Assembly: GCA_020059585.1 (NCBI GenBank)
Contig: JAGVBU010000016.1
Location: 1-50,460 of the forward strand
Source of the DNA: Minisyncoccota bacterium
Lineage (GTDB): Bacteria > Patescibacteriota > Minisyncoccia > UBA6257 > GWB1-50-10
Direction: 5' to 3'
Length of the DNA stretch: 50,460 nucleotides
Of the stretch, positions 7,309 through 45,601 are shown one piece after another. The notes below the pieces were generated by a model. The model did no database searches, was not told the DNA's origin, and was given only the letters and a program-made list of their open reading frames with translations. The position numbers were made by a program, and so were the translations under genes. Numbering within the stretch: the first letter of the stretch is position 1; each line of letters starts with the position of its first letter.

Positions 7309-10240
7309 GTACTTTGATTTTAATATGCGCGAGGCGTTGACTTACCGCGTCCGCAACCGCGACGGGGCTTAGTTTTGCGATCATATCATTCCGCGCTCTT
7401 CCTCCTTTTCTTCCCGCAATTTCGTGGTGACTATAGATCATGCGCATCGCTTCGGCGGCTTTTTCTTCGTCAGGATTCGCCCACACGTTTCCTTTTTTGT
7501 AGGGCCCATAGTCCTTTTCGAGCGGAACAAGCGTGTAGGGAATCGGAAATCCGTTTTCTTCATTCAAAAAGTCGGTGTTTCCGGAATAATTCGTAGCAAT
7601 GACTGGTTTCCCAAGCATCATGGATTCCGCAATCGTAAGCCCGAATCCTTCGGAACGATGGAGGGACACATACGCGTCACACACGTTCATCAAACTTGAT
7701 ATTTCGTCGCGCGAGAAACAGTCATTCAAAAGGAATATGTTGTGCGCTTCGGATTCTTTTTGGAGTTTCGCGAAGTCTTCCAAGTTGATTGTGTGATTCG
7801 AAGATTTTATGACGAGCCCCACAGGTTCATCTAAACGGAACGCGTTTTTGAACGCGCGCACGATCGCAAGCGGATTTTTCCGTTCGAAGATACTGTAAAA
7901 ATCAAACGTAAAAAGAAAAAGAAACATATCATCCGGCACTCCGAATCGTTTCCTCGGATATGGGCATTTTCTCATCGTGATGGCGTGCGGAATGATGGTA
8001 ATAGGAATGTCTTTTTTCGCTTCATGGATTGCTTTCGCAGAAAAAGAACTTGGGGTCCATATCTCATCTACATTTCCAAGGAGCGCCGCCCATGAAGCGG
8101 GAAGCGAGGAAAGTTCCCACGCCCAGTAGGCAATATTGTATTTGCCCCGAAATTTCTTTTCTCCGAATGCGCGGAGCTCACTCGCGAATACATCTCCGTA
8201 GAAGACGATGATATTTACCGCATACGGATTTTTCGCGGAAAATTTCTTTGAGAATTCATTTTCTTTCCTGCGGTGCGGACAACGCGGACTGTTCAAAAGC
8301 GCGTGAGGGATACCTTTTTGCATCACTGCTCGTGTGAGAGTACGTGCGGCTTCTCCCACGCCGCTTTCGGAATCGAGAAATCCGAAAATATTCACCCCAT
8401 GAGAAATAACCAATTCCGGAGATTCTTTCAATTTATCCCCACCGCCCATATGTCGTGGTTGAACCACAACTGATCTGGTTTTTTTGTTATAGAACGAGTG
8501 CAGGCGTGTTATACAATATCGCAACAACCCATGTTCTCTATACATCCGCAGGTATAGTTTTAGGGAGAACGGGATCCTGCCCCTCTTTAATTTTTCGTAC
8601 TGGAAGCGATTGATAAGCATATTTTGCATGCGCGATCCGTCTCTTTTCAAGGTCTCGAGAGTTTTTCCGGGGACTATAGGTGTGTCTTCCGATGCATTCA
8701 CGAGACGAAGGTATCCGTACAACTGAGATGAAGCATTTATGGTTTTAGCGATCGTGGTCGATTTTTCCCAGTCGATCTTTGCGTGTTTCAGATGTTGCGC
8801 GCTCAAGCGTATCTTCCCCAGAGCCATCTCGAAATTTTTTTCATTGCGGCGGAGAGGAAGTTGAAAAAAAAATACGCAGGCATCTATGACGAGTGCCGAT
8901 TCATTTTTGAAAAAATCCTCCTTCCGCATCATAAAAAGATGAAAAGGGAGGTATGTCGATATGGTTTCAAAATATTCATGTACTGTGTTGTCATTGACGC
9001 GCAGAAAGACCTCTTCCGCCGGCGCGTCTCCAGGAAGCGTGTCGCACATAAGGCGTTCACGCAAAGCCTCTAGTTCACGGGGGATTGAAGCTATAGGTTT
9101 ATTATCCTGTTGATGTATGGGAGGTCGTGCCGTTGCTTTTTTTAACATCGGAATTTTTTCTTTCAAATGCTTCAGCCACTCTCTTACCGGAGCGAAATCT
9201 TGTTCCGCAAGGCGCATTATCGTTTCATCGGGGACGGTGCGTTCGCGCTGTATTTTTTTTCGGTTTTTGAGCGTAGCGGGAAGATTAATCACATTCCAGA
9301 AGAGTGCATAAAAAGGAATACTCACAAATCCCAATTTTTTCAGGAACGGGAGGCGGTGTTTACTCGTCTGAAAATATCCGACAATCGCGAACCAATACCC
9401 AATAAGAATATATAATATGGAGCGAAAGAGGTATTTTTTTTCGTAGTTTTTGAGCGCCGCACGGAGTGCATTTCGCTTACAATAATATAGTTTTTTATAT
9501 GGCGTTTGGTTGTAGCTCGCGCTGTGTTTGTGATACACGATTGCCTTCGGTTCGAAAAGGATCCGATACCCATAGAGATGTGCTCTCCAGCTCCAATCGA
9601 GATCTTCGAAGTATGCGCCGAATGCCCCGTCGAGAAGCCCGACGTTTCTAAACGCCGCGGATCGGATGAGTGCCGCACCAAAACACGCGCCGACCACTTC
9701 GGAGCTTTCTTTTTTTCCGCGTTCGCGGGAAATTCCGAAATTAATATCGTACCCGTCGCCGTTCCAATCGATCGTACCGCCCTGACTGTTGATAATTTCC
9801 GGATGATCTGCAAAAAACATATTCGAGGTAACCGCCGCAATGGTCGGGTCCGTTTTGGTGCGCGCCACCAACACTTCGATCCATTGTTCGCCGACCGTCG
9901 TATCGTTATTAAGAATCGCAATAAATTCGGGAGAATATTTTTTGAGCGCGTATACGATTCCGTAATTTACCGCGCGGGCAAATCCTTTGTTACGGGCGAG
10001 TGTACGTATATCAATTTCCGGAAAATTCGCGCGTAGATGTTCCACACTGTCATCGGTTGACGCATCATCAACGACAACGATTTTGAAATTTTTATACGTT
10101 TGTTTTCTTAAAGAGTTCAGACATTCATCTAAAAGGCGCGTATTATTGTGGTGAGGAATTAAAACGATAGTTTCCATATCATTAGCTATTTTTCCATTAA
10201 AGATTTTTATAATATTCCAACACTTTTTTCGTTTCATCAA
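7301..10240 (-). CDS. Bifunctional glycosyltransferase: N-terminal GT2 domain plus C-terminal GT4 (GT-B) domain. The likely true start is 10177 (METIVLIP).
   Basis: GT2 signature: VLIPHHNN...LNSLRKQTY.NFKIVVVDDASTDDS. GT4 signature: SLHRSEGFGLTIAESMMLGKPVIATNYSGNTDF. Hydrophobic helices lie mid-protein. A start at 10177 removes the overlap with the upstream ABC ATPase gene. Confidence 0.9.
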   Translation of the reverse strand: MMKRKKCWNIIKIFNGKIANDMETIVLIPHHNNTRLLDECLNSLRKQTYKNFKIVVVDDASTDDSVEHLRANFPEIDIRTLARNKGFARAVNYGIVYALKKYSPEFIAILNNDTTVGEQWIEVLVARTKTDPTIAAVTSNMFFADHPEIINSQGGTIDWNGDGYDINFGISRERGKKESSEVVGACFGAALIRSAAFRNVGLLDGAFGAYFEDLDWSWRAHLYGYRILFEPKAIVYHKHSASYNQTPYKKLYYCKRNALRAALKNYEKKYLFRSILYILIGYWFAIVGYFQTSKHRLPFLKKLGFVSIPFYALFWNVINLPATLKNRKKIQRERTVPDETIMRLAEQDFAPVREWLKHLKEKIPMLKKATARPPIHQQDNKPIASIPRELEALRERLMCDTLPGDAPAEEVFLRVNDNTVHEYFETISTYLPFHLFMMRKEDFFKNESALVIDACVFFFQLPLRRNEKNFEMALGKIRLSAQHLKHAKIDWEKSTTIAKTINASSQLYGYLRLVNASEDTPIVPGKTLETLKRDGSRMQNMLINRFQYEKLKRGRIPFSLKLYLRMYREHGLLRYCITRLHSFYNKKTRSVVVQPRHMGGGDKLKESPELVISHGVNIFGFLDSESGVGEAARTLTRAVMQKGIPHALLNSPRCPHRRKENEFSKKFSAKNPYAVNIIVFYGDVFASELRAFGEKKFRGKYNIAYWAWELSSLPASWAALLGNVDEIWTPSSFSAKAIHEAKKDIPITIIPHAITMRKCPYPRKRFGVPDDMFLFLFTFDFYSIFERKNPLAIVRAFKNAFRLDEPVGLVIKSSNHTINLEDFAKLQKESEAHNIFLLNDCFSRDEISSLMNVCDAYVSLHRSEGFGLTIAESMMLGKPVIATNYSGNTDFLNEENGFPIPYTLVPLEKDYGPYKKGNVWANPDEEKAAEAMRMIYSHHEIAGRKGGRARNDMIAKLSPVAVADAVSQRLAHIKIKVLT

Positions 10241-10916
10241 ACATTTTTAATTCTCCCTTGTCGAGCAGAATAGTTTTGTTGCAGTGTTTAGCGACCGCTG
10301 TGAGGTCGTGACTCGCGAAAATGATAGTTTTCCCGCGATGTTTGTAACTATTGAGGATGGAAACGCAGTGCGGTATGAAATCCTTGTCGCCCACCGCAAA
10401 GATTTCGTCGAGTAAGAGCACGTCCGGATCGGTTTGGACCATTGTGGCGAACGCGAGACGGGCGGTCATTCCTGAGGAAAAATGTTTGAGTTTCATATCG
10501 GCAAACCGTTCCAAACCAGCAAATTCAAAAATCGCCATGAGTCTTTCTTTTATTTCCCTGCGCGACATGCCGAGCACAGCACCGTAGAGATATAAATTCT
10601 CTTTGGCGCTTAGTTCGTTATGAAATCCAACACTGAGACTCAAAAGAGGAGCAACGGTACCCTCGATTGAAAATGAGCCGGTTGTCGGTTCTATAATACC
10701 GCCCAAAATCTTGAGAAGAGTGGTTTTGCCGCTCCCATTTTTTCCGATGAGTCCCACCATTTCACCTTTTTGTATCGAAAAACTTGCGTTTTTTATTGCA
10801 TAGAAATCTTCATACATAATCCGGTTTTTCAGGCGGCCAAGCAGTTGTTCAAAAAGCGTGCCCGTTTTTTCATGCGGTATCCTGTAGAATTTTGTTATAT
10901 TGCGCGCCTCTATCAT
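10197..10916 (-). CDS. ABC transporter ATP-binding protein, polysaccharide/teichoic-acid exporter type (Wzt/TagH-like, no C-terminal carbohydrate-binding domain)
   Basis: Walker A is GKNGSGKTTLLKIL, the ABC signature is FSSGMTARLAFA and Walker B is LLLDE. It sits directly downstream of an ABC-2 permease. Confidence 0.93.
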   Translation of the reverse strand: MIEARNITKFYRIPHEKTGTLFEQLLGRLKNRIMYEDFYAIKNASFSIQKGEMVGLIGKNGSGKTTLLKILGGIIEPTTGSFSIEGTVAPLLSLSVGFHNELSAKENLYLYGAVLGMSRREIKERLMAIFEFAGLERFADMKLKHFSSGMTARLAFATMVQTDPDVLLLDEIFAVGDKDFIPHCVSILNSYKHRGKTIIFASHDLTAVAKHCNKTILLDKGELKMFDETKKVLEYYKNL

Positions 10917-10918
10917 AG

Positions 10919-11683
10919 TTAAAGCTCTTCTGCGAACCTCTTGCCGTATTTTTTAAATATAAAAGTCCCAGCGGTGCATAGCAATGCAGTAATGATAATG
11001 GTGATGATTATCTGTTTCATTTCGGGATACACACCATCAATAATTACGCTTCGTGCGTCGATAATGAGCCGAGAAATCGGATTCAACAGATACCATTTGG
11101 ATAAGGATGGGGGGACGAGTTTATAATCGTATACAATGGGAGTGGTCCAGAAGAGCATTTGGAGGAAAATATCCCATATATGGCCGAAATCTTTAAATTT
11201 CATATATAACGGAGCGATGAAATAAGAAGCTCCCGCCGTGAGCAATACCAGGAGTGGCACTATGAGTATGAGCATGGTCACACTTGTTGCAAGATGGAGA
11301 CCGAACGCAAAAAAGAAAATAAAAAATATTCCGAGCGTTATAAGGAACGTCCAAAACGAATGGAGTACCGTACCAGCGACAACAATGAAGGGAGGCAGGT
11401 TTGTTCCTTGAAGGAGATGGGTTTTGGCGGCGATGCCAGGGGCGATGTCTTTGGTGGTATCGTTGAAGAAATTCCAAAAAATAATGCCGAGGAAAAGATA
11501 CACTTCATAGTTAGGAATATTAACCTTAAGAAAATAAAAAAATACGATATACAGTATACCGAGCATCATGAATGGTTTTAATAAACTCCAAAAAAGGCCG
11601 AGCGCAGAGCCGTAATATTTCAATTTGAAATCTAACCGGCTCAATTCGTATATAAGGTTGAGTTTGTTTTTAATATCTTTCAT
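10919..11683 (-). CDS. ABC-2 type transporter permease (Wzm/TagG-like)
   Basis: About six TM helices and the typical N-terminus (..ELSRLDFKLKYYGSALGLFWSLLKP). It is adjacent to the ATPase. Confidence 0.9.
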   Translation of the reverse strand: MKDIKNKLNLIYELSRLDFKLKYYGSALGLFWSLLKPFMMLGILYIVFFYFLKVNIPNYEVYLFLGIIFWNFFNDTTKDIAPGIAAKTHLLQGTNLPPFIVVAGTVLHSFWTFLITLGIFFIFFFAFGLHLATSVTMLILIVPLLVLLTAGASYFIAPLYMKFKDFGHIWDIFLQMLFWTTPIVYDYKLVPPSLSKWYLLNPISRLIIDARSVIIDGVYPEMKQIIITIIITALLCTAGTFIFKKYGKRFAEEL

Positions 11684-13064
11684 GAGTGCCGAGTGTATCC
11701 CTGATTTTGGACAAAAATTTATATGACAATATTCGATTGAGGGGCACAGAAATTGTTTTTGATTTTTTGTGAAGGATTATGGGTGATAACAACATCATCC
11801 CTAATTTTCTTATATCTCCGAGGCCGTCTCGACGCGTGGGGACGAATGTGGTGTTGGAGAATCTTATTTTCGTTACGTTCCCATCGATGCGCACATGGAT
11901 GGTGTCGTCTGTGGTGTGATATTCACGTTTCGTAACCATTAAAGAATTCCGGTCATACGTCTCCATGGTGAAAGTTTTTTTGTTGAACGGAGAGAACATG
12001 ACATCAAACTCCACGCCCGTTACCATATCCGTATATATGAGGATTTCCGATTGGCGGGAATTCCAGATGAAGGATTTTTTCAAAATGTCATGATATTCCA
12101 AGACATACCACCCGTGTCCCAATACGACATCTTTTTTGAAATAGCCCAACAATAATCCGACACGTTTTGTCGATTTACTCAGAAACTTATAGAGAAAATA
12201 TCTCAGTTCAATTCGATATAAATAACGAAAATAAAGAACGCTGAATATATTGAATGAGTATGGCGTGCCGTTGCGGGGACTCTTCAGATCCATCAAATCC
12301 GCCACACGGAGATTATCACTCCATTCCCGGTAACAGGGAGATTGTCGGTCCCACGGCTTGTACTTTCCCGCGAAATGCAGTACAGCGCATTTTATTTTTG
12401 ACGGGTTGTTTTGATACCTTCGCGGCAACGAGAAATAATATAAGTTGAAAAAAAATGGCATTCTGATCCATTTTTTATGAAAGAAAACATTCAATATCGC
12501 CTGATCCGGAAAATACACAGTCTTTCCTACGAATTCGTCGGCAAGGTTGCAAATATTCTGGAACGTATCTTCGGTGATGATATCGGTGGAAAAACAGAAC
12601 ATTCCACTATTGAACGCTTTTGCGTTCACCATTTTTTTATCTATGGTGGTTTGCGTATAGTCATCAATCTGATTTTCGATGAATGGGAGCATGTCGGTGA
12701 CGGCACCAAACCCTTTTATTCTGGTTAATCCGCTCATATCGGCTTTTACCATGATATCACTATCTAAAAAAACAACGTGTTTCCATTTTTTGAACTCCAA
12801 CGTGAACACGTAAAATTTAGCGAGGATGAGTGGTGAGTAATTTAAACTCCAATCATCTTCTTTCGCGTTTATGGGTGGGGCCGACACATTCTTTACGAGT
12901 ATTCCTTTTTTCCTAAACCAAACTAGTTTCGGTTCAGGAATTTGATATGCTAGAAGCATATAGTCTCCGTCCCATCCGCCCTTCCAATATGCCGAAGAAA
13001 AAAGTTGCCTTGCTTGGTCAATGAAATTTTCATCGGCGAGAGTGACGAGTAAATTTTCTTTCAT
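11670..13064 (-). CDS. Glycosyltransferase family 8-like protein with a C-terminal extension of about 190 aa of unknown function
   Basis: GT8-type motifs are VVFLDSDIMV, FNSGMFCF, DQAILN and HFAGKYKPW. The 3' end overlaps the permease start by 14 nt. Confidence 0.85.
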   Translation of the reverse strand: MKENLLVTLADENFIDQARQLFSSAYWKGGWDGDYMLLAYQIPEPKLVWFRKKGILVKNVSAPPINAKEDDWSLNYSPLILAKFYVFTLEFKKWKHVVFLDSDIMVKADMSGLTRIKGFGAVTDMLPFIENQIDDYTQTTIDKKMVNAKAFNSGMFCFSTDIITEDTFQNICNLADEFVGKTVYFPDQAILNVFFHKKWIRMPFFFNLYYFSLPRRYQNNPSKIKCAVLHFAGKYKPWDRQSPCYREWSDNLRVADLMDLKSPRNGTPYSFNIFSVLYFRYLYRIELRYFLYKFLSKSTKRVGLLLGYFKKDVVLGHGWYVLEYHDILKKSFIWNSRQSEILIYTDMVTGVEFDVMFSPFNKKTFTMETYDRNSLMVTKREYHTTDDTIHVRIDGNVTKIRFSNTTFVPTRRDGLGDIRKLGMMLLSPIILHKKSKTISVPLNRILSYKFLSKIRDTLGTHERY

Positions 13065-13073
13065 ATCCCATCT

Positions 13074-14150
13074 TTATAAACCCAACAGTAATTTTATCTC
13101 ACGAGAACTTTCCTGCCAACCGTGCCCTTTCGCCCACCGACGACAACTTTTTTCTTTTGCGTGGAGTTTTTTGAGATCAAGCCAGCGAACTATTTCTTCA
13201 GCAAAAATTTGAGGATTATAACAGTAGGTTAGAATACCGGTTTTGCCGTCAATGACCGATTCTTTGAGGCCTTCAACGGTATTTGCGATGACAAACGTGC
13301 CGGTGGCATTTGCCTCAATCACCGAGATGCCATATCCCTCAATGCGGGAGGGAGCGACATACACCCACGTCCGGCTGAATAATTTTTGTTTCTCTTCTTC
13401 AGAAACATAATCTAAAAATTTAATATCGGGATGATGTTGGTAGTGTTGGAACTCCCGACCGGCTATGACGTACTTCACCGCCGGAATTTTATTTTTGACC
13501 AGGGGATAGGTTTTTAGAAACAAATCAACGCCTTTCCGGTTTTCCAATCGACCTAGAAAAAGAACCGTCGGTTCGGGTGCGTATGCTTTTTTGACGTTAA
13601 ATAATTCCTCATCAACGCCGTTCAATACTTTATGGACTTCCTTGAATTTATGTCGTAATAATTCCTGTTTCATCCATTCACTGACCACAATCGTCTTTTC
13701 CTTGCGATAAAGGAGTAAAAACAAACTTTCGGCAAGATATCCGATTAAAGCGTAAAAGAATTTCTGGGATTTGAAAAATTGAAGGCGGTTTAAATTATGA
13801 ATTATTATTATTTTTTTCCGGCGAGGATAAAAAAGAGGGGTGAAAAATGGTAATACGCTCACATCTTCAAAAAGGATGTCTGGGGTGAAGATTTTTAAGT
13901 ATTTTTTGACTAAAAACGGCAGGAGAAGATGAATACGAATAATGTTTTCCGAATCCGGCAGACCAAAACGGTGTATATGAATATTACGGTAAAACTCTTC
14001 TTGTTTGCCGCCGGGAAACATGGCGCTTAAAAGATGGACGTCGTATTTTTCCCCGATTCGGGAAAATATTTCCAGTAGGTTTTTTTCCGCCCCTCCCGCC
14101 TTGGGATGTAGGGGACAGAATTTATTTATTATTAGTACTGTTTTCTTCAT
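13074..14150 (-). CDS. Glycosyltransferase family 4 (GT-B fold)
   Basis: PSRIEGYGISVIEANATGTFVIANTVEGLKESVIDGKTGIL is an E-x7-E-type motif. The N-terminus has GGAEK. Confidence 0.9.
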   Translation of the reverse strand: MKKTVLIINKFCPLHPKAGGAEKNLLEIFSRIGEKYDVHLLSAMFPGGKQEEFYRNIHIHRFGLPDSENIIRIHLLLPFLVKKYLKIFTPDILFEDVSVLPFFTPLFYPRRKKIIIIHNLNRLQFFKSQKFFYALIGYLAESLFLLLYRKEKTIVVSEWMKQELLRHKFKEVHKVLNGVDEELFNVKKAYAPEPTVLFLGRLENRKGVDLFLKTYPLVKNKIPAVKYVIAGREFQHYQHHPDIKFLDYVSEEEKQKLFSRTWVYVAPSRIEGYGISVIEANATGTFVIANTVEGLKESVIDGKTGILTYCYNPQIFAEEIVRWLDLKKLHAKEKSCRRWAKGHGWQESSREIKLLLGL

Positions 14151-14160: not shown

Positions 14161-15222
14161 TTACTTTATGGAGAGCGTCGAAAGTATTGTTGAATTAAAT
14201 ATCACCTGTAATCCTATGAGAATAGAAACGAGCGTCTTATCGAAATCAACTTCGCTCGTTCCAGTGATTTTCATGACAAGTGCGCCTCCAATAAATAGAA
14301 AACCAAGAATAAGTGCAAATGAAAATTTGAATTTTTCGTAGAAATTTTTTATAAACTCGTCAGTTTCACCAAGGCGTGTAGTAAGGTATGTTTTTGCAAA
14401 GAGTCCAAGAAATAAAATCTGAATGCCGAGTATCGGGAAGAAAATTTTTACCGTTGCGGAGGCAAGAAATGGGGTGATGTGGTTTCCCCATAGAAGACCA
14501 ATCATCCCAGTAATGAAGAGCATGCTCCCCGTTACAAGGTAAAAGACAATGGGTGTTTGTATAAGAATATATTTTAAGTGCGCAAAACCATCACGATAGC
14601 GTCGAAGTTTTGATGTGCCACCTCGTCGGGAATAATCAGTTGCAATCTCTTTTATAACAAGATTTTTTCTTTTTGCTTTTATCATCATTTCCGTTGCAAA
14701 CTCCATGCCGTTCGTTTTTTGGTCCAGTTCAAGAAATGTTTTTTTTCTTAACGCCCTGTATCCCGATTGGCTATCTGATGTTTTTATTCCCAAAAGGACA
14801 AAAAGAAGCAGATTAAAAAGTGGTGTTCCCAAGAAACGATGGAGTAGTGGCATAGCTCCTGTCTCTATGGTTCCCCTGAAGCGACTTCCGAGTACTATGT
14901 CGCTTTTTTCCAATTCCTTTAAAAATTTTGGTATATCAGTAAACTGGTACGTGTTGTCGGCGTCTGCGTAGATGATAATTTCTCCACTCGCGTTCTTTAT
15001 TCCTTCCTTTACCGCAAATCCATATCCTTCCGTGTCGTGTTTTATCACTCGCACCCCTTCCGTTTCAGCAATTTTTTCTGTTCCATCATTTGATGAATCA
15101 GAAACGATAATTTCTATTGAAAGACTATTTTCACCAGCAACCTTCTTTATTTCTCGAATACACCGGCCCACAGTTTCCTTTTCGTTCCGGCATGGGAGGA
15201 CTACTGATATAATAGAGTTCAT
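14161..15222 (-). CDS. GT2 polyprenyl-phosphate sugar synthase-like glycosyltransferase with C-terminal TM helices (DPM1/GtrB/ArnC-like)
   Basis: ISVVLPCRNE..., IIVSDSSNDGT and YADADNTY (a DxD motif). About four C-terminal TM helices follow. Confidence 0.88.
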   Translation of the reverse strand: MNSIISVVLPCRNEKETVGRCIREIKKVAGENSLSIEIIVSDSSNDGTEKIAETEGVRVIKHDTEGYGFAVKEGIKNASGEIIIYADADNTYQFTDIPKFLKELEKSDIVLGSRFRGTIETGAMPLLHRFLGTPLFNLLLFVLLGIKTSDSQSGYRALRKKTFLELDQKTNGMEFATEMMIKAKRKNLVIKEIATDYSRRGGTSKLRRYRDGFAHLKYILIQTPIVFYLVTGSMLFITGMIGLLWGNHITPFLASATVKIFFPILGIQILFLGLFAKTYLTTRLGETDEFIKNFYEKFKFSFALILGFLFIGGALVMKITGTSEVDFDKTLVSILIGLQVIFNSTILSTLSIK

Positions 15223-15239
15223 GCGTATATAATTATATC
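15223..15239. promoter_or_regulatory. 17-bp divergent intergenic region with overlapping, oppositely oriented TATAAT boxes
   Basis: The sequence is gcgTATATAATTATATc. The plus-strand TATAAT (15228-15233) lies 6 nt before ATG 15240. The minus-strand TATAAT (15237-15232) lies 9 nt before the ATG at 15222. Confidence 0.45.
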
Positions 15240-17033
15240 ATGAGTTTTCTACTTGTTCTTCCATTCATTTTAATCCCGGGATACCTCATTACGCTTTTTT
15301 TCCCCCGCATACATGGGTTTTCAGAACGAATTGGTTTTTCCATTGCAACGTCAATTTCTCTCGGAGTAGTGATTAGTAGTGTGTTTGTGGCGTTGCATTT
15401 TCCGCTCGCAGGAACATTTTTTGTATGGAATATAATTATTTGTCTTTTCCTCGCAATTGTCTTAAGGAAAAAGCTGTTTCTTATTCGGGAAGAATGGAGG
15501 GATACAAAATCAAAAGAAAAAATATTTATCGGCACTGCGTTTTTTGTCTCAGTTCTTGCGGGCGTTTTTATTTTAGCGATACACATGGGATATCCATGGG
15601 CAATCCACGCCGATGAATGGTGGCAAATAGGGATAGTTCAAAATGTTATTGAGGGCAAATCACTTAATATAAATCCATATCTTTTTAATGATTTTTCAAA
15701 TGATAAACCGGGATTTTCAAGCTATATAGCAATGCTTTTAGGTGCTACGGGGATAGATCCAGTGAAAGCATGGCCCTATACGCCAGCACTCAGCGTATTT
15801 CTTATTTCTTTTGTGGGATCTTCCTTTATCTTTGTAAGAACAAAAAGTTTTTTGGCAGGGATGCTGTTCCCGATTTTTCTTGTTGCACTCCGGTCAAATG
15901 CATATTCACTCGGATGGTGGTTTTTTGTTCCCTCGATGTTCGCACTTTTCTTTGTTCTTGTTATTTTTTTCACCTCGTCTCTATGGACAAGACACCTTTC
16001 AGAATTTTTTTGGGCATGTCTTATTTTTAGTGCGCTTGCGCTTGTGTATTTCCCATTCGCAATAATTTTATTCCTCTCCTTCCTCCCGGCCATTCTCAAG
16101 AATGTAAGAAAAAGACAGATACGGTTGTTAATGTGCATGGGGATGTTTTTTTTGATACTCGCGGGGGTATATGTTGCAGAATCCATAAGCCCCTATAGCG
16201 AATTTTGGAGAATGGCAGATGATATTTCTCTTCCTTCTTTTTTGTCGCAGTCAAAAATTATCCAAACGTTTTTTGTTCCTCTCTCCGCGACATTTCATTT
16301 TGCGGAAAAAATAGGTTTTTTTAGTACGGTTCCCATTCTTCTTTTTGTGTCCGCTCTCGTTGGTTTTTTTCTTACTCGAAAAGATGATTGGATGGAGAAC
16401 ATTCGCTTCGGTTTTTTAATTGGAATGGTGATGCTCCTTTTCGGAATTTTTACCGGAGTTTCATTTCTTGTGTTTTATCAACGCCTATTTTATTTTGTGG
16501 GAATTATAGTCGCAATATTGGGGACGATGGGGGTGGTGTTAAGTGTCGAGAAAATTCGCTTACTCTGGGATAAAGCGCGGTTTTCCGTATTATGGAGAAA
16601 TGTCGCTATATTTTTTTTGATGGCGACATTTTTTCTAGTTCTCTTTAATAAATATTTTATTCTTCCTAATGGTGCGGGTCTTTATGAGTTAGTAAACAAA
16701 GATGATCTTGCCGCGTTACTATGGCTTAAAGAAAATAGCGGAAGATTTAATGGAATGGCGGTAGTAGCAAATCAAGCGGTGGGGACTCTCGTTACTCCAT
16801 TTACTCGTCTTCAGTCAAAGATTTCATTTCTTACCTCACAAAGTGCGGGTGCACTTATTAATCCAGCTGGGCTCATGGTGGAAGAAGAGGGGGAGTGTGG
16901 AAAAAAAGAAAAAACATTGATGGATCTTGGTGCGAAAATTCTCTATGCAAAAAAACCGCAGGAATGCCCATTTTTAGAGGAGATATATCGAAATCCAAGC
17001 GTATTTATCTATCTCTATACGGCGGGAAAATGA
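15240..17033 (+). CDS. Large polytopic membrane protein, possibly a GT-C-type glycosyltransferase or glycan polymerase
   Basis: At least 12 predicted TM helices, an acidic loop motif (HADEWW) after the early helices, and a soluble C-terminal domain of about 120 aa. It is divergent from a polyprenyl-P-sugar synthase gene. The function is inferred from context only. Confidence 0.8.
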   Translation: MSFLLVLPFILIPGYLITLFFPRIHGFSERIGFSIATSISLGVVISSVFVALHFPLAGTFFVWNIIICLFLAIVLRKKLFLIREEWRDTKSKEKIFIGTAFFVSVLAGVFILAIHMGYPWAIHADEWWQIGIVQNVIEGKSLNINPYLFNDFSNDKPGFSSYIAMLLGATGIDPVKAWPYTPALSVFLISFVGSSFIFVRTKSFLAGMLFPIFLVALRSNAYSLGWWFFVPSMFALFFVLVIFFTSSLWTRHLSEFFWACLIFSALALVYFPFAIILFLSFLPAILKNVRKRQIRLLMCMGMFFLILAGVYVAESISPYSEFWRMADDISLPSFLSQSKIIQTFFVPLSATFHFAEKIGFFSTVPILLFVSALVGFFLTRKDDWMENIRFGFLIGMVMLLFGIFTGVSFLVFYQRLFYFVGIIVAILGTMGVVLSVEKIRLLWDKARFSVLWRNVAIFFLMATFFLVLFNKYFILPNGAGLYELVNKDDLAALLWLKENSGRFNGMAVVANQAVGTLVTPFTRLQSKISFLTSQSAGALINPAGLMVEEEGECGKKEKTLMDLGAKILYAKKPQECPFLEEIYRNPSVFIYLYTAGK

Positions 17034-17126: not shown

Positions 17127-17135
17127 TGGTATAAT
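17127..17135 (+). promoter_or_regulatory. Extended -10 element TGGTATAAT, with an AGGAGA Shine-Dalgarno site at 17147-17152
   Basis: gtgtggtataataaata is followed by caggagaagcATG. Confidence 0.5.
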
Positions 17136-17155
17136 AAATAGCAATCAGGAGAAGC

Positions 17156-20100
17156 ATGAAATCCCCAAAGTCATTTCTAGTGTTTTTATTCGTAAGTATT
17201 ACTATTGCAGCCTTTTTTGTTGCTGTGTTTTATACCGATACGGTGAGAGCTGCGTTGTGGTCTGTGAACAGTTCCGACTCTTTAAGTCTTTCTCCCTCAA
17301 CAAATTCAATTTATCTCTCATGGTCATTGAGTCAACAAAATGGTGGGACTCAGACCATTTATCGCAACGGATCTGTCATTACTTCGGTGGGCGTAGGAAC
17401 TTCTTCGTATACGAATTCTGGACTGGCTACGTGTACCACATATTCGTATAGCGTGTGTTCCGCATATGGATGTGCTTCAGCCTCTGCATCTACAACCGGA
17501 TGCGATCCGTGTGCAGGAGTGACCTGTAATGCTTACTGTTCCGCCTCAACCGCATACTATTCTGGGTATTGTTCGGGCGGCGCGTGTTACTATTCGACCG
17601 ATAACTGTGCGAATGGGTTTTGTAGTGGTATGGTGCCATATCCAGGGTCAACGTGTACTTCTGGAGTATGTAATCGCACCGCCGGATCGACATGTCTTTC
17701 GTCAACATGTTCTGGAACGACGTATTTATACAGTGGTTATTGTTCGGCAGGTTCATGCGGCTATGGTGCGTCGTCAATCACTGCGGGTACGTGTGGCGCG
17801 GTGTGTACCCCCGGAACAACCCGAACAATGTATGCGAATTCGCAAACAGCGTGTGGTAATTCGTGTTTAAGCGAGACACAAACTTGTAATAGTAGCGGAA
17901 CGGGGTGGTCCGGATCATACACATTGACGTCATGTACCCCCGCAACACGGACAGCGTACGGAGCACTTACCTCTGCGTGTGGAACATATTCGTATACAAG
18001 TGAAACGCAAACCTGTCAAACGAGTGGTGTATGGAGTCCTTATAATTACACACTTACCTCTCCACCCTCAGCAACTACTCGCACTCGTTATGCGGCAGCG
18101 ACATCCGCTTGTGGTACGTACGGATCGAACAGTGAGACTCAATCATGTCAATCAAACGGATCGTTTAGCGGTACGTACACTCTAACTTCCCCCGCCACCG
18201 TTACTACTCGCACTCGTTATGCGGCAGCGACATCCGCTTGTGGTACGTACGGATCGAACAGTGAGACTCAATCATGCCTTGCGGGTGGATCGTTTAGCGG
18301 TACGTATACACTTACATCACCGCCATCAGCAAGCACAAGGACAATGTATGCGGCATCTTCCGTTGCGTGTGGTGGTGTGTGTTCAAGTGAAACACAATCG
18401 TGTCTTTCGAGCGGATCATGGAGCGGAACGTATGCATATAGTTCATGTAGTGTTGCGGAGTGTGCTCCGGCTGCTCCATCTGGTCTGTACGGAACACCAG
18501 GCTTAGATTCATATTCACTCTCGTGGACTGATAATTCTTCGAACGAAAGTGGGTTTAGAATTTATACCTATAGTTATTCAACTTATACTCTTGTGGGAAG
18601 TGTCGGAGTAAATGTTACAAGTTTTACCGATTCGAGTCGTTCTTGTTCAACCTCTAAGCCATACATTGTAAGAGCATATAACCCCCCCGCGGGAGAATCT
18701 GCTGATAGTAATGATGTACAGGGATTGACTTCTCTTTGTGTGCCCGCGACAACTACTCCACCAAATGGATCGTGGTCGACTTCAAAACAGTTTTGTGCAT
18801 CGGTCACTGGATATGCGACAGTTTCAACAAGAGCAAGGTTTGTAATTGGAGGAATAACATATAGTGGAAATTATGTTACAGGAAGCGGTTCAAGTTGTTA
18901 TGACTATACGGGTTCCGATGTAAATGGAATATCGTGGTCTGCTTATACGGAAGATTCGGCGGGACGTACAAGTTCAAACTCCGCTTCGTGGACGGCATAT
19001 ATTGACACAGTTGCGCCGACTCCGAATCCGCCATCTGTTACATTGTCGTCGTCCGGTTCTTCTGTGACCGCAGTGCTTTCAAGTGGATCTGACGCAACAT
19101 CGGGATTGGATTCAACGGCGTATGGATTCATGATTGATGCAGGCGGCGCATACTCCTGGCAATCTTCCGCCTCAAAAACGTTTACGGGAGTTACTTGTGG
19201 TGTATCACACACGGTGAGTGGAAAGATAAGAGATGCGGCTGGGAATGAAACATCTGTAGGAACTGCTTCAATAACTCCACTTTGTGCGCCTACGGGGGTT
19301 TCTGCATCATTTTCGTATGATAGTTCTGCAATCGAACGAGTTGATATTTCCTGGAGCGCAGTATCCGGTGCGTCATCGTATACGATTTATAGAAGAGTGA
19401 ATGCGGGGAGTTGGGCGGTAACAAATCCAACATATTGGTGGAGTGCAACAAATGCAGGAGTTGATGTAGGAACGCTTTCGTGTGGAAGTACTTATGAATA
19501 TTATATTGTTGCGAATGGCCCCGACGGATCATCTTCTCCATCCGCATCGGTATCGAAAGCATATGGCGCGCCAGGAAGTGCGCCGAGAATGTATCAAATA
19601 TGGCCGGAATCGAATTCCGCTGTTGATATGTATTGGGAGGGTGTTGAGGGTGCGCCGCGCTATAAGGTATATCGGGGAGGTTCTCTTGTTGCGACAGACC
19701 TAGGACAGGGATCGGGTTTCTGGAATACGGGGCTTCCCGCAAACACGCAATATTCCTATTATGTTACCCCATATAACGCATGTGGCGATGGACCTGCGGG
19801 AACGACATACACCGTGCGTACACTTGGAAATATAACTACGAGTCAAAGCGCATCAACACAGACATCTATTACTGCGTGTTATACCGATTCCGTGAATCCT
19901 ACTCATCCGAATCTTTCGTATGTTGATCACTACTGGATAACAAGGAGCAGTCTTGGTGGACCCGTTGATATGACTAGTGGAAATATTTATCCTTCCACAA
20001 CATGCTGGACAGATACAGGACTTACATGCGGAACAACATATTCATATCAGACGAAAGCGGGTTTTGTGATGCAGGCACAGGGAATAACGAACGGGAACGG

Positions 20101-21157
20101 CGGACTTGGTGCCGCGAGTGTTGATTCATCTTCGCAAAGTTATAGCACCGCTGCATGTGATACAACACCACCGACTATTTCCATAAACGGTTCAAGTGCC
20201 GCGTGGACGACTTCAGCAAGTGCTACAGCGACAGCGAGTGATGGTTCGGGGATCTCATATGTTCGCCACTGTTGGATTGATACGGGGGTTATGCCTCCGT
20301 GCGACCCAGGAACAACAAGCGCAAACACGTTCACAAATGGCGCTACACTTACACAAGTAACATCCGGATCGTCGTGGTATGTATGCTTTAGGGCGCGCGA
20401 TACGAACGGAAATTGGACTCCTGCGCCGACCTCGGTTAATTACGCTTCATACTGTTGGGGTCCAGTGCGAGTTGATACGACAGCACCGACACCAAATCCT
20501 CCGAGTCCTTCGGAATCGAGTACGAGTGCCGATTCTATTACGGTTGTGATGGGTACAACAGGATCTGATGCACATTCTGGAATGAATAGTACGCCGTATG
20601 GATATGCAATAGACGGGGGATCATATTCATGGACGAGTTCTGGTGCGAATACATTTTCAGGACTTTCGTGCGAAACAAATCATACAATTTATGGAAAATT
20701 GCAGGACGCGGTGGGAAATCAGACATCTGCGGGAAGTGCTAGTATTACGACCGGATCGTGTGTTGTTGCTCCTACAACGGTTAGTGCTGTGACTGCAACG
20801 GAAAAATCTGGAGGAGGTGGGCTTAGCGCATCATGGACAAATGTCGGTGCAGATGGATATAGGGTGTATTTGAAAGGAGGAAGGTCAAGCGCGAACACCA
20901 CGACACTTATAACAGACACGGGAAATGTCACGATTCCTTCACAGTCAGGACTTGACTGTCCGGGAACATATTCCGTGATTGTGGTTCCTTACAATAGTGA
21001 TATTAGTCTTAGTGGAGGCACTCATTCGAGCTGTACAAGCGCTTTTTCAGACTCATCACTTTCAGGAGTATCGGTTCCTACAAACAGAAAATGTGCGGCG
21101 CCCACCATCGGTACAGTAAGTCTTATATCGTGCACTAAAGGGTTCTTATTCGAATAA
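17156..21157 (+). CDS. Giant Cys/Ser/Thr-rich surface protein with tandem modules and FN3-like domains (1333 aa)
   Basis: N-terminal signal/anchor (FLVFLFVSITIAAFFVAVF). A Cys-rich region follows (YYSGYCSGGACYY / YLYSGYCSAGSCGY). Five modules of about 43 aa have the form TRT.YA..S.ACG....SETQ.C...G..SG.Y.L.S. FN3-like segments include SWTDNSSNESGFRIY and several SW..V.GA..Y.(I/V)YR. Two paralogous modules of about 95 aa begin DT.APTPNPPS. Confidence 0.9.
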   Translation: MKSPKSFLVFLFVSITIAAFFVAVFYTDTVRAALWSVNSSDSLSLSPSTNSIYLSWSLSQQNGGTQTIYRNGSVITSVGVGTSSYTNSGLATCTTYSYSVCSAYGCASASASTTGCDPCAGVTCNAYCSASTAYYSGYCSGGACYYSTDNCANGFCSGMVPYPGSTCTSGVCNRTAGSTCLSSTCSGTTYLYSGYCSAGSCGYGASSITAGTCGAVCTPGTTRTMYANSQTACGNSCLSETQTCNSSGTGWSGSYTLTSCTPATRTAYGALTSACGTYSYTSETQTCQTSGVWSPYNYTLTSPPSATTRTRYAAATSACGTYGSNSETQSCQSNGSFSGTYTLTSPATVTTRTRYAAATSACGTYGSNSETQSCLAGGSFSGTYTLTSPPSASTRTMYAASSVACGGVCSSETQSCLSSGSWSGTYAYSSCSVAECAPAAPSGLYGTPGLDSYSLSWTDNSSNESGFRIYTYSYSTYTLVGSVGVNVTSFTDSSRSCSTSKPYIVRAYNPPAGESADSNDVQGLTSLCVPATTTPPNGSWSTSKQFCASVTGYATVSTRARFVIGGITYSGNYVTGSGSSCYDYTGSDVNGISWSAYTEDSAGRTSSNSASWTAYIDTVAPTPNPPSVTLSSSGSSVTAVLSSGSDATSGLDSTAYGFMIDAGGAYSWQSSASKTFTGVTCGVSHTVSGKIRDAAGNETSVGTASITPLCAPTGVSASFSYDSSAIERVDISWSAVSGASSYTIYRRVNAGSWAVTNPTYWWSATNAGVDVGTLSCGSTYEYYIVANGPDGSSSPSASVSKAYGAPGSAPRMYQIWPESNSAVDMYWEGVEGAPRYKVYRGGSLVATDLGQGSGFWNTGLPANTQYSYYVTPYNACGDGPAGTTYTVRTLGNITTSQSASTQTSITACYTDSVNPTHPNLSYVDHYWITRSSLGGPVDMTSGNIYPSTTCWTDTGLTCGTTYSYQTKAGFVMQAQGITNGNGGLGAASVDSSSQSYSTAACDTTPPTISINGSSAAWTTSASATATASDGSGISYVRHCWIDTGVMPPCDPGTTSANTFTNGATLTQVTSGSSWYVCFRARDTNGNWTPAPTSVNYASYCWGPVRVDTTAPTPNPPSPSESSTSADSITVVMGTTGSDAHSGMNSTPYGYAIDGGSYSWTSSGANTFSGLSCETNHTIYGKLQDAVGNQTSAGSASITTGSCVVAPTTVSAVTATEKSGGGGLSASWTNVGADGYRVYLKGGRSSANTTTLITDTGNVTIPSQSGLDCPGTYSVIVVPYNSDISLSGGTHSSCTSAFSDSSLSGVSVPTNRKCAAPTIGTVSLISCTKGFLFE
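17816..18463 (+). repeat. Five tandem 129-bp (43-aa) coding repeats. Copies 18074-18202 and 18203-18331 share a 74-bp identical core.
   Basis: actactcgcactcgttatgcggcagcgacatccgcttgtggtacgtacggatcgaacagtgagactcaatcatg is identical at 18074 and 18203. tcgtttagcggtacgta is also shared. Confidence 0.9.
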
Positions 21158-21161
21158 GGAT

Positions 21162-21752
21162 ATGAAAAACGATACCTCAAAAAATATAAAGATAGTACTT
21201 GTCGTAATCGGATGCGTCGTGGTTATTGTGCTTGGAATGATAATCTTTTCGGATAAAAAACCCCAGGCGGTTCTTGAGGGTGCGACGGAAGACGTCGGAC
21301 AATCTGAAATCACGGAACCGGAAAATATGGCAACCGGGTCAAACCAGGAGGCGAATGTTTCTATAGCGGGGAACACCGGTCTTACACCGTACGAACGGCA
21401 AGTTGAGGCATTGAAAACAGCGTCACTTACGAAAGCGGATATAGAAGAGTCACTCGGTGCGGGACTGAAAGAAAAATTCAAGGTATTTAATCTGCGAATA
21501 ACCGCAGACGGATATATTCCGAATGCAATCATTGTCGAAAAAGGAGATGCGGTGCAGTTAAATATGACGGCGGACGAAGATGCTGATATACAATCACAGG
21601 ATTTTAATTTCTTTGTTCCTGTTCCAGCAAAAGAAGTCACGAACCTTGGGTTTATTGCAAATAAGGAGGGGACATTCGTTTTCTATTGCAGAAATCAATG
21701 TCTTGGAAAAGATCGGGTATTCGGGCACATAGTGGTACGGCCACGGTCATAG
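21162..21752 (+). CDS. Membrane-anchored cupredoxin-like protein, paralog 4 (ligand-divergent)
   Basis: It starts 4 nt after the giant protein's stop. TM helix (IVLVVIGCVVVIVLGMIIF), a linker, then YIPNAIIVEKGDAVQLNMTA ... GTFVFYCRNQCLGKDRVFGHIVV. Confidence 0.85.
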   Translation: MKNDTSKNIKIVLVVIGCVVVIVLGMIIFSDKKPQAVLEGATEDVGQSEITEPENMATGSNQEANVSIAGNTGLTPYERQVEALKTASLTKADIEESLGAGLKEKFKVFNLRITADGYIPNAIIVEKGDAVQLNMTADEDADIQSQDFNFFVPVPAKEVTNLGFIANKEGTFVFYCRNQCLGKDRVFGHIVVRPRS

Positions 21753-21836
21753 TTGTCCACATTACTTTTTCCCGTAAAAGATATATACTGAGAGAGAACT
21801 ATATAAAACGGTCGATTAAATTTTTTTGCTACGCAT

Positions 21837-22259
21837 ATGAACAAAATAAACAGAGTGCTTTTGTGGGTTGTTGCGGTGCTCGTGGTCATACTTCTTGTGC
21901 TTGTGGTGTGGCAGATATTCTTTGGAAAATCGTCGTATTACGCGGTATATATGCGGACAGGGGATCTTTATTTCGGAAAACTTGTGAAATTCCCCTCATT
22001 CGCGATGAAGAACGTATATACGCTGCAGGTGACACAGGATGAGCAGAATCCTATCCGCGTGCAAAAGTTCGCTGACGTATTCTGGGGTCCTGAAGATTAT
22101 CTGAAAATAAACAAGGATGAGGTGGTGTGGTACACGAAATTGAAGAGCGAAGGACAGCTTTCACAGCTTATCACTTCAAACCCCAATCTCGTTCCGCAGC
22201 AGCAGGTCCCGCAGCAACAGGTGCCCGTACAACAGGTTCCTGAAGATGTGAATCAGTAG
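21837..22259 (+). CDS. Small membrane-anchored hypothetical protein with a PQQQV-repeat tail
   Basis: N-terminal TM helix (VLLWVVAVLVVILLVLVVW). The C-terminus reads VPQQQVPQQQVPVQQVP. No family was recognised. Confidence 0.65.
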   Translation: MNKINRVLLWVVAVLVVILLVLVVWQIFFGKSSYYAVYMRTGDLYFGKLVKFPSFAMKNVYTLQVTQDEQNPIRVQKFADVFWGPEDYLKINKDEVVWYTKLKSEGQLSQLITSNPNLVPQQQVPQQQVPVQQVPEDVNQ

Positions 22260-22320
22260 ATAGAAGTTAGAATCTAGTAGCTAGAATCTAGAAACTAGGA
22301 GATAGGAGATGAAAGAATTA

Positions 22321-22364
22321 AAAATCTCCCTGCCACAACTTATAGATGTCGGCAGGGAGATTTT
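22321..22364. terminator. Bidirectional hairpin terminator between convergent genes
   Basis: AAAATCTCCCTGCC-16 nt-GGCAGGGAGATTTT: a 14-bp stem with A/T tracts on both sides. Its right end abuts the recR stop. Confidence 0.75.
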
Positions 22365-22966
22365 TATTTTCTGTTCTCGAGAGAGTTTCTCAGGGTTTCC
22401 TCGTCGGCAAACTCTATGTCGCCTCCCGTGGGGATTCCTCTTCCAAGCCGGGTGATCTTCGCGTGTGTGTCCTTAAATCCCTGCCGTATCAGTTCGGATA
22501 CAAAGTCGCCGAAGGTGTTCGGTCCAAGCGCAATGATGATCTCAATCCCTGCGCCGTTTTCTGATTCCTTCACTATCCGATTTTTGAGACTCTGGAGACG
22601 CTGTTTCTGAGTCTCTCCAAGGGGATTCCTGTGATCAAGCTCTCCAATGACACAGTAGTGTCCCGAAAACCCTCCCATTTTTTCTATGGAAAAAACATCC
22701 GTATCTTTTTCCACAATCGCAACAATATGAAAATCTCTTTTTTTGTTGGTGCATATGCCGCACATCTTTTCCGCGCGTGGTTTTATGAAGAAACAGCGGG
22801 GACATCTGTCGAGTGTTTTTAGTCCATTCAACGCTTCGCGAATGCGCGATTGCTCGTGTTCGGGAAGCGATGCAATGAAAAATGAAAGCCGCGTTGCCAT
22901 ACGGGGTCCTATCGCGGGAAGTTTTGAGAATGAATCTACAAAATTCTGTATTTCGGGGGGAAGCAT
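22364..22966 (-). CDS. recR: Recombination protein RecR
   Basis: HhH motif (LPAIGPRMATRLSFF), a C4 zinc finger (CPRC...CGIC), a Toprim region, and a length of 200 aa. Confidence 0.95.
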   Translation of the reverse strand: MLPPEIQNFVDSFSKLPAIGPRMATRLSFFIASLPEHEQSRIREALNGLKTLDRCPRCFFIKPRAEKMCGICTNKKRDFHIVAIVEKDTDVFSIEKMGGFSGHYCVIGELDHRNPLGETQKQRLQSLKNRIVKESENGAGIEIIIALGPNTFGDFVSELIRQGFKDTHAKITRLGRGIPTGGDIEFADEETLRNSLENRK

Positions 22967-28784: not shown

Positions 28785-29243
28785 GTGAATATCACAACAG
28801 CATTCGAATATGAATTTCAATCGGGTGAATTCGAGGGGAAAAAATTAAAATCGGTTATTTTCAAAAGTTTCCGACACCTCTCGGATCTGAAGAAAAAGAT
28901 GGATGCGGGGCTCACGCGCGATTCTTCGAAAAACGCTCTCCATAAGGCGCTCGAAGAAATTATGCTTTGGGAAAAGAATCCAGACATTTTGGTCGTATGC
29001 CCATTCTGCGGAGAAAAGAGAGTGAGATTTTTCTCTTATAATTCCTCGCGGGAAGACGTATATTTTTCCGACTCTCTCGTTTCGTGCGAAGAGTGTATCC
29101 CAAAACTAGAAAAAAGAGTTTCCTCACATTGCGGACGTCCGGTCATTGTACCCATCAGGATGACTTCCGTCTTCCGTTTTCTCCCGAAATTCGAGAAAAA
29201 AGTGCTCACATTTCTGAAAAAAATCATTTCCCATCCAAGGTAA
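28785..29243 (+). CDS. Hypothetical protein with a CxxC...CxxC zinc-ribbon-like motif (152 aa, GTG start)
   Basis: It has a strong promoter and Shine-Dalgarno site. CPFCGEKRV and CEECIPK lie about 30 aa apart. No family was recognised. Confidence 0.65.
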   Translation: MNITTAFEYEFQSGEFEGKKLKSVIFKSFRHLSDLKKKMDAGLTRDSSKNALHKALEEIMLWEKNPDILVVCPFCGEKRVRFFSYNSSREDVYFSDSLVSCEECIPKLEKRVSSHCGRPVIVPIRMTSVFRFLPKFEKKVLTFLKKIISHPR

Positions 29244-29260
29244 CGCGGGTGGGTTTTTTT

Positions 29261-45441: not shown

Positions 45442-45601
45442 TGTTGATAACTCCTGAGAGCATAAGAAAAACATAGATAAATGCAGTACTTTTAGCCCCC
45501 ACATAGGGGGTGTTTTTCTTTTGCGTACGAGTGGTGTATGATAATTGGGAAGTGGGGAATTGTGGATAACAGTGTGGATAAGTACCCATTTCGGGGGATA
45601 A
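45442..45601 (+). promoter_or_regulatory. Cluster of co-oriented DnaA-box-like 9-mers / GTGG direct repeats upstream of mraZ
   Basis: TGTGGATAA at 45561-45569 and 45573-45581 is the exact reverse complement of TTATCCACA. TGTTGATAA at 45442-45450 has 1 mismatch and GGGGGATAA at 45593-45601 has 2. GTGGGGAAT occurs at 45402 and 45552. Confidence 0.5.
45496..45522 (+). terminator. Short rho-independent terminator
   Basis: CCCCC-acata-GGGGG is followed by tgtttttctttt. Confidence 0.55.

Follow-up and report, generated by a model that had tools for sequence, protein, structure and literature searches.

A giant surface protein and an anchored cupredoxin-fold partner encoded as a conserved gene pair in a Paceibacteria genome

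In the Sulfolobales, the large exported glycoprotein SlaA and its small membrane-anchored partner SlaB are encoded by adjacent, co-transcribed genes, and the small protein tethers the large one. Gram-positive loci for glycoproteins of the surface layer (S-layer) place the structural gene beside an slg glycosylation cluster that has a Wzm/Wzt exporter. Bacteria of the Candidate Phyla Radiation (CPR) are thought to live attached to host cells, and to our knowledge the way in which they hold large, variable surface proteins on the envelope is largely obscure. Here we describe a locus of a Minisyncoccota bacterium (contig JAGVBU010000016.1 of GenBank assembly GCA_020059585.1, analysed as one stretch of 50,460 nucleotides (nt), hereafter the window) in which the gene for a giant surface protein of 1333 amino acids (aa) is followed almost immediately by that for a small anchored protein with a cupredoxin fold, hereafter the partner. 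Pairing of a large surface protein with a small membrane protein from the same operon is a known kind of system; the unexpected feature is a ligand-degenerate cupredoxin as the partner, and no description of a giant/cupredoxin pairing was found in the literature. Based on the collective evidence, giant and partner very probably constitute a functional pairing. Just short of probable, and put forward tentatively, is the more specific proposal that they form a two-gene operon for a two-part structure on the surface of a Paceibacteria (CPR) cell, with the partner as tether.

Comparison with SlaA/SlaB is a working analogy only: the proteins are unrelated in sequence and fold, SlaB is a coiled coil with a C-terminal anchor, unlike the partner, and any lattice of the giant is hypothetical. 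Like the slg-type loci, the giant locus sets a Ser/Thr-rich exported protein beside glycosyltransferases, an ABC-2 exporter and a polytopic membrane protein; unlike them, it involves no SLH domains and its membrane protein (597 aa) matches no oligosaccharyltransferase family. With the CuA domain of ba3 oxidase subunit II and NosZ the partner shares the β-sandwich, the cysteines at the bridging positions (loop FYCRNQCLGK.. in the partner vs IICNQYCGLGH..) and weak NCBIfam matches to the NosZ C-terminal domain. Both histidines and the methionine of that centre are replaced in the partner, however, and there is no subunit I or NosZ catalytic domain; unlike the CuA systems, it is a stand-alone anchored protein of 196 aa paired with a giant protein of fibronectin type III (FN3) domains. 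The small cupredoxin domain likewise resembles the Cupredoxin_1 proteins of Bacillus anthracis (4hcf/4hcg/4hci) and CupA (4f2e), with target-normalised TM-scores of 0.76-0.82. The metal site of CupA, a Cys plus CxMxM, is absent from the partner, whose genomic neighbour is a surface protein and not a copper exporter.

Conservation of the pair among relatives

Three open reading frames (ORFs) make up the locus. Rechecking of their coordinates placed all three where an earlier note on this DNA had put them, and the 4 nt which that note had counted from giant stop to partner start are exact.

17156 to 21157, plus strand: giant surface-protein gene, 1333 aa
20762 to 21154, plus strand: C-terminal module of the giant (residues ~1203-1333), FN3-type, with four invariant Cys and the tail SCTKGFLFE
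21155 to 21164, plus strand: junction TAA-GGAT-ATG, with a 4-nt spacer and an AAGGA that overlaps the stop codon
21162 to 21752, plus strand: partner gene, 196 aa
21837 to 22259, plus strand: third gene, 140 aa

The giant orthologues P0001, P0002 and P0004 and the partner orthologues P0079, P0080, P0082-P0084, L012, L014 and L020 were traced to their contigs. In 13 of 13 giant/partner pairs, from at least 10 distinct sequence lineages, the partner lies 1-16 nt downstream of the giant (gaps in relatives of 4, 4, 1, 10, 4, 4, 16, 5, 5 and 4 nt, and of 10 and 13 nt for the two pairs of locus L016), and in the traced orthologous loci it is always preceded by an FN3-rich protein of 999-1497 aa. Conservation of the junction, suggested earlier as a check, thus extends to every pair examined. 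A metagenome scan with the partner profile added one new locus only, the short L020. The syntenic order is GT2 (glycosyltransferase family 2; minus strand), a ~600-aa membrane protein, giant, partner and third gene, then recR, dnaB and cysS (minus strand); since most loci are syntenic, shared ancestry contributes to the adjacency pattern.

The more distant, non-syntenic locus L016 is organized in another manner. It encodes in succession a cupredoxin, a 451-aa FN3 protein, a partner-like protein, a 354-aa FN3 protein and a second partner-like protein, separated by gaps of 1, 10, -4 (an ATGA overlap) and 13 nt, a tandem order from which it follows that the pair was duplicated as a unit. The short FN3 proteins share with the giant only the last ~125 residues, with four invariant Cys and the ending SCTxGFLxE or FCTQQFLGN. 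This C-terminal module is the sole part common to all partner-linked big proteins, and the partner therefore goes with the module and not with the variable body.

Comparison between strains reveals the same linkage. Relative to the near-identical strain L010, nucleotide identity is 48-80% over the 3' part of the giant gene and the partner; it steps to 98% at ~21800, just past the partner stop, and stays at 91-98% through recR and dnaB. Relative to L001 the pattern is reversed: similarity is close over the left flank and the cassette and drops to only 75% identity from recR onwards. For the middle of the giant gene, identity to L001 and L010 alike is ~70% where an alignment is possible at all. 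Over the wider interval 9148-29608, the window resembles L001 (~85-90% nucleotide identity) as far as the end of the cassette and L010 (92-98%) from 21800 onwards. The alignments read as a recombination mosaic, the boundary of which follows the partner and does not part it from the giant. The pairwise identities computed for the partner domain correlate with those of the giant C-terminal module at r = 0.90 (36 pairs), although shared phylogeny and the L016 outgroup pairs inflate this value. As controls, the third gene, RecR and the membrane protein gave 0.41-0.75 on fewer pairs.

It is this set of observations, universal adjacency, duplication as a unit in L016, co-variation and the position of the recombination boundary, that bears out the earlier note in calling the pairing functional, though not in its choice of the tight spacing as the strongest evidence. 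About one third of same-strand neighbours in the window are ≤16 nt apart or overlap (tally of the gene list), the gap from PBP2 to the Mur ligase gene being the same 4 nt; in so compact a genome short gaps are frequent, so that the 4-nt spacing alone is weak evidence and the comparative data carry the argument.

Within the junction (gaaTAAggatATG), a consensus scan and RNA folding detected no promoter, terminator or RNA structure; the sigma-70/terminator scan returned fewer matches than shuffles and missed a real extended -10 box as well as a long-loop terminator. The giant has start signals of its own:

17127 to 17151, plus strand: giant promoter and ribosome-binding region, with extended -10 TGGTATAAT (17127-17135) and AGGAG Shine-Dalgarno (17147-17151)

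A TGnTATAAT/TATACT box 20-25 nt before the giant start codon recurs in L001, L012, L002, L004 and L007, and the giant is one of very few window genes with a canonical Shine-Dalgarno sequence (AGGAG). Five metatranscriptome runs hold related sequence. In one of them (X23), a single contig of 1660 nt, equal in length to locus L011, spans the last 483 nt of a relative's giant gene, the partner and the third gene at a depth of 21.5 and ends at window-equivalent position 22330, beside the terminator. Over recR, dnaB and cysS the same run has nothing but fragments at depth 2-4, the junction contig being roughly 8-fold deeper; such uneven coverage favours RNA over contaminating DNA, hence a junction-crossing transcript, and as assembled contigs from a relative these data are supportive only. 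Together with the bare junction, the giant's own -10 box and Shine-Dalgarno sequence and the gaps of 1-16 nt in relatives, they make a single transcript of giant and partner almost certain, in agreement with what had been claimed before. Translational coupling is plausible; the AAGGA overlapping the stop codon in the window is not conserved among relatives.

Partner fold and the conserved end of the giant

The partner is built as follows:

Residues 6-30: transmembrane helix
Residues 32-67: disordered linker
Residues 76-86: helix
Residues 94-193: CuA-type cupredoxin β-sandwich with C176-x3-C180

At 26.9 bits (E 5.1e-6, about 5e-6), the partner falls 0.1 bit short of the gathering cutoff of 27 for Pfam PF13473 (Cupredoxin_1), and precomputed annotation assigns PF13473 to it and to 10 of the 11 listed homologues. 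Its AlphaFold2 model has a mean predicted local distance difference test score (pLDDT) of 77, with 88-96 over residues 68-196 and an acidic/polar linker of 36 residues. Foldseek matched it at probability 1.0 to CuA domains (NosZ, Thermus ba3 oxidase subunit II), B. anthracis Cupredoxin_1, CupA, FtrB and nitrosocyanin, the best structural matches being the CuA domains of NosZ/ba3 oxidase with 28% identity and a root-mean-square deviation of 1.7 Å over 90 residues. Model and structure search thus agree on the cupredoxin Greek-key β-sandwich.

The copper site has not been kept with the fold. Of the CuA ligand set (H..C-x3-C-x3-H-x2-M), two of five side-chain ligands remain, both of them Cys: in the profile alignment with T. 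thermophilus ba3 CuA, C176 and C180 correspond to the bridging Cys, while H114 is replaced by Q/S, H157 by K183 and M160 by V186. A type-1 blue copper set is likewise absent: upstream, the partner has DIQSQDF with no His, and a C-x(2-4)-H-x(2-4)-M loop is missing. More distant partners have N, E or Y in place of H189, and those of L016 have lost one or both Cys. The earlier label "cupredoxin-like" therefore holds for the fold (AlphaFold2, Foldseek), whereas a normal copper electron carrier is unlikely with only two of five CuA side-chain ligands left. The label 'oxidase subunit 2' attached to one partner orthologue (JGI) is a fold-level annotation only. The narrow orthologue group of the partner comprises 6 representatives at E ≤ 1e-30; relaxing the cutoff to E ≤ 1e-10 brings in a wider family of anchored cupredoxins of ~175 aa, with 961 representatives. 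Among partner-related proteins, the anchored P0094 (535 aa) has two type-1-like cupredoxin domains flanking a long middle with two repeats that are FN3-like by eye, and P0088 (267 aa) is an apparent frameshifted gene call that fuses the end of a giant's C-terminal module to a partner with Asn in place of H189.

The giant contains 239 Ser, 190 Thr (32% Ser+Thr) and 56 Cys, with charged residues at only 8%, and its initial description as Cys/Ser/Thr-rich is accurate. Its N-terminus, with a basic start, a 20-residue hydrophobic stretch and V-R-A|A, follows a pattern retained in orthologues. The chain is laid out in this order:

Residues 1-32: signal peptide or anchor
Then: FN3-like domain and Cys-rich region
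Residues 218-435: repeats
Then: FN3/Ig-like domains

Pfam fn3 (PF00041) is present in the giant's orthologues (P0001-P0004); the window giant itself has no Pfam FN3 match above threshold (E 0.1), and its sole PDB sequence match is a weak one to Dscam FN3 domains. Residues 218-435 (window 17807-18460) consist of five ~43-aa repeats of the form TRTxY..ACG..SETQxC..GxWSGxYxLTS, without a Pfam family match, and the same repeats occur in many otherwise unrelated Cys-rich giants of CPR and other bacteria (P0005, P0010, P0014, P0024, P0049, P0059). Public gene calls for the giant differ, NCBI giving 1333 aa and JGI/IMG only a 202-aa 3' piece from Met1132.

At the conserved end, the AlphaFold2 model of the last 202 residues (pLDDT 83.6) matches tandem FN3 domains at probability 1.0. 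The final GFLFE, at pLDDT <50, is the sole low-confidence stretch of the model apart from the cut N-terminus; it is the most conserved motif of the giant C-terminus yet is predicted to be unpacked, as would be expected of a short docking motif. Screening for C-terminal sorting signals (LPXTG/sortase, PEP-CTERM, PGF-CTERM, T9SS) revealed nothing beyond ...SCTKGFLFE, the last 135 residues have no Pfam match, and neither SLH nor other known anchoring domains were found in the giant. When a profile of the C-terminal module was searched against a protein database, low-complexity words swamped the candidates, and the only match was the 202-aa JGI gene call of the window itself.

Surrounding genes and signals

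The features that frame the pair are these:

1805 to 2371, 6213 to 6761 and 6811 to 7308: anchored cupredoxin-like paralogs (paralog 1 at 1805, paralog 2 at 6213)
15240 to 17033, plus strand: 597-aa polytopic membrane protein
21753 to 21815, plus strand: third-gene promoter region, with DnaA-box-like TTGTCCACA (21753-21761), -10 TATACT (21784-21789) and AACGGTCGA (21807-21815)
21837 to 22259, plus strand: third-gene protein of 140 aa, with an N-terminal transmembrane helix, a ~90-aa domain and a Pro/Gln-rich tail
22320 to 22365, both strands: bidirectional intrinsic terminator between third gene and recR, with A-tract, 10-bp GC-rich stem (22325-22334/22351-22360) and U-tract
22364 to 22966, minus strand: recR, convergent with the third gene

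Upstream of the giant (14161-17033 and 7301-14150) lie genes for the GT2, the 597-aa membrane protein, further glycosyltransferases, including a 979-aa GT2+GT4 fusion, and an ABC-2 permease/ATPase pair. The GT2 (14161 to 15222, minus strand) is AglJ/dolichyl-phosphate-hexose-transferase-like, with C-terminal membrane helices. Start codons of the divergent GT2 and 597-aa genes are only 17 nt apart, each -10 lying inside the other's coding region; the membrane protein is called as 482 aa in one public annotation and as 597 aa in the other. Searches of Pfam, NCBIfam and PDB sequences matched it to no family or known oligosaccharyltransferase. These glycan-synthesis/export genes are conserved beside the giant in relatives. 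They represent a candidate route of protein or cell-wall glycosylation in which the 597-aa protein could be the transferase, and judged by gene content they would fit a reading of the giant as a glycoprotein.

For the protein of the third gene, no family was found in Pfam, NCBIfam and PDB sequence searches. Its promoter block is conserved in six lineages and stays beside the gene where the spacer is 185 or 375 nt. The gene belongs to the conserved backbone, with 98% nucleotide identity relative to L010 compared to 48-80% for the partner; in the pairwise comparison with L010, the values are 99% for the third gene and 84% for the partner domain. Having its own conserved promoter and lying on the conserved backbone, it is separate from the giant/partner unit, and of the earlier picture of a third anchored protein ahead of a strong bidirectional terminator, the anchor and the terminator stand while membership of the unit does not. 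Read-through of the operon into the third gene is possible, given that there is no terminator between and that the X23 contig runs through. A transcription start at 21806, suggested by X24 contigs covering only the third gene, was rejected: near-identity between strains begins at 21800 and an assembly break explains the contigs equally well. The terminator hairpin has -32.8 kcal/mol and z = -6.1 relative to shuffles, with equivalents in L001, L003, L004, L007 and L010; the consensus scan missed it because its loop exceeds 8 nt.

Across relatives, the DnaA-box-like element of the third-gene spacer reads TTRTCCACA, with the perfect consensus TTATCCACA in three lineages and a TATAAT/TATACT box ~22 nt downstream. 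The motif has 3 matches in the window compared to 0.74 expected, and such elements may indicate DnaA-dependent regulation; GC skew placed no origin within the window. Two perfect tandem TTATCCACA boxes, at 45561-45569 and 45573-45581 (minus strand), are found in the spacer upstream of the ORF at 45612 to 46043.

In the window's other two pairings of giant and cupredoxin the genes stand further apart (253 and 121 nt) and have -10 boxes of their own, and both arrangements recur in relatives L017 and L019. The giants concerned are not Cys-rich. In paralog 1 the type-1 ligands are complete (THIF...C-x4-H-x8-M), and with 29.2 bits it clears the cutoff of PF00127. An orthologue with 52% identity and intact type-1 ligands (L024 3258-3929) lies on an unrelated 398-kb contig, its neighbours being tail-fibre-like giants, a Peptidase_S74-domain protein and a 1321-aa Cys-rich giant. 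Orthologues of paralog 2 (L017 2949-3467, L019 7713-8243) are without the CxxxC pair (FSDIEGNATGMIIVR vs FSCNNYCPNGGPESMSGVIIVR), and loss of Cys therefore occurs in the paralog 2 subfamily too. By sequence context in the loci compared, the association of anchored cupredoxins with giant surface proteins appears more general in CPR genomes.

Typical housekeeping genes fill the rest of the window (recR, dnaB, cysS, GAPDH, split transketolase, dnaK/dnaJ, PBP2, Mur ligase). A Shine-Dalgarno sequence is missing from most window genes, and in many a TATAAT lies 5-10 nt ahead of the ATG (e.g. 5024, 14161/15240, 25948, 30622, 34537, 40450), which together suggest widespread leaderless mRNAs. The deepest RNA contigs of the region map to the 367 nt at 28839-29205 (depth 17 and 59 in two metatranscriptomes; neighbours 2-4), a stretch that overlaps the ORFs at 28785 to 29243 and 29084 to 29749 and has no Rfam family or tRNA match.

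What the pair may do

As components of a two-part surface structure, giant and partner could work together in the following way. The giant would be exported via its N-terminal signal sequence to form a long fibre or layer of FN3/Ig type in which Ser, Thr and Cys abound, probably glycosylated by the adjoining glycan-synthesis/export genes. The C-terminal FN3-type module, alone in being universally conserved and ending in the putatively exposed tail SCTxGFLxE, would be held at the membrane by the partner, in which an N-terminal anchor and a flexible stalk would carry the CuA-derived cupredoxin domain as binding module, the ligands of the copper centre having been lost from it. Close coupling of the two reading frames would match the amounts of both proteins, and the pair would diversify and recombine between strains as one cassette. 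A sharper version is a real possibility, if on balance a doubtful one: a CuA-derived cupredoxin without copper centre would have been recruited as a dedicated membrane receptor that captures the FN3 module and GFLxE tail of strain-variable giants. It may apply more generally, the paralog 1 subfamily also being conserved beside tail-fibre-like giants on an unrelated contig.

Several points weigh against the tether proposal. We infer, and do not observe, the outside-facing topology of the partner and its physical binding to the giant. CupA, a structural relative, is anchored N-terminally with its domain facing the cytoplasm. The 20-residue hydrophobic stretch of the giant may be an uncleaved N-terminal anchor, which would leave the C-terminus far from the membrane, and the CxxxC, retained in most close orthologues, may still bind Cu(I) or be redox-active. 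All examples bar L016 come from one syntenic clade, such that adjacency may partly reflect common descent, and the correlation of identities is inflated as stated above. The RNA contigs are from a relative, not this strain, and their assemblies may contain DNA.

The alternative that survives best, although unlikely, takes the partner for a metal-handling or redox maturation factor, the CxxxC of which binds Cu(I) or acts as a thiol-disulfide centre in folding or oxidising the 56-Cys giant outside the cell. C176 and C180 occupy the positions of the CuA bridging Cys and, on the count that favours this account, are retained in all close orthologues; the structural neighbours include the Cu(I) chaperone CupA and metal-bound B. 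anthracis Cupredoxin_1; the giant is unusually Cys-rich; and the full type-1 set of paralog 1 reveals copper chemistry in this set of proteins. Yet both His and the Met of CuA are replaced, H189 is not conserved, and the L016 partners that lose one or both Cys are still paired with FN3 proteins retaining the four module Cys. The other cupredoxin-adjacent giants of the window, moreover, are not rich in Cys.

Less likely again is an accessory role in export, assembly or glycosylation, with the partner holding the C-terminal module during secretion, for example, or presenting it to the glycosylation machinery, and not bound afterwards. The adjacency and co-variation data serve this account equally, as does the conserved glycan/export cluster with its ~600-aa polytopic membrane protein directly upstream in all syntenic relatives. 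The L016 pairs, however, do without an adjoining ~600-aa membrane protein, profile searches provided no sequence evidence linking the partner to glycosylation, and we know of no precedent for a cupredoxin fold as a secretion chaperone.

It is improbable that there is no specific interaction and that the partner is an ordinary extracytoplasmic cupredoxin, for example an electron carrier of the type suggested for NirK in CPR, which merely shares the operon. Many functionally unrelated genes of the window are separated by short gaps, small anchored cupredoxins form a large family (the 961 representatives mentioned above), and CPR cupredoxins have been read in published work as electron donors to NirK (PMC5581439, PMC12931201). 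Such a carrier, however, is at odds with a ligand set incompatible with a CuA or type-1 centre, with the duplication of the L016 pair as a unit and with a recombination boundary that directly follows the partner instead of separating it from the giant; furthermore, the window genes scanned included no respiratory or NirK gene. A polymorphic toxin/immunity pair, as in contact-dependent inhibition, with a toxin at the giant's C-terminus and a co-varying small immunity gene, is very improbable, the fit of an exported giant, a small linked downstream gene and a cassette differing between near-identical strains being superficial when the C-terminus is no variable toxin domain but the most conserved part, a tandem FN3 fold without enzyme-like domain, when strain divergence is graded (48-80% identity) over the whole 3' half with no replacement after a pre-toxin motif, and when the partner is a single homologous family throughout.

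Lastly, the conserved giant/partner cassette provides a concrete pair for work on binding, localisation and structure. Because the partner lacks the ligands, labels such as electron carrier or 'oxidase subunit 2' should not be given to every CPR cupredoxin by default. By its sharp recombination boundary the cassette stands out as a surface locus that varies between strains, a pattern expected of host- or phage-facing structures. Were the partner indeed a receptor for the giant's C-terminal end, the pair would represent a previously undescribed attachment of surface fibres or S-layer-like proteins in CPR bacteria.

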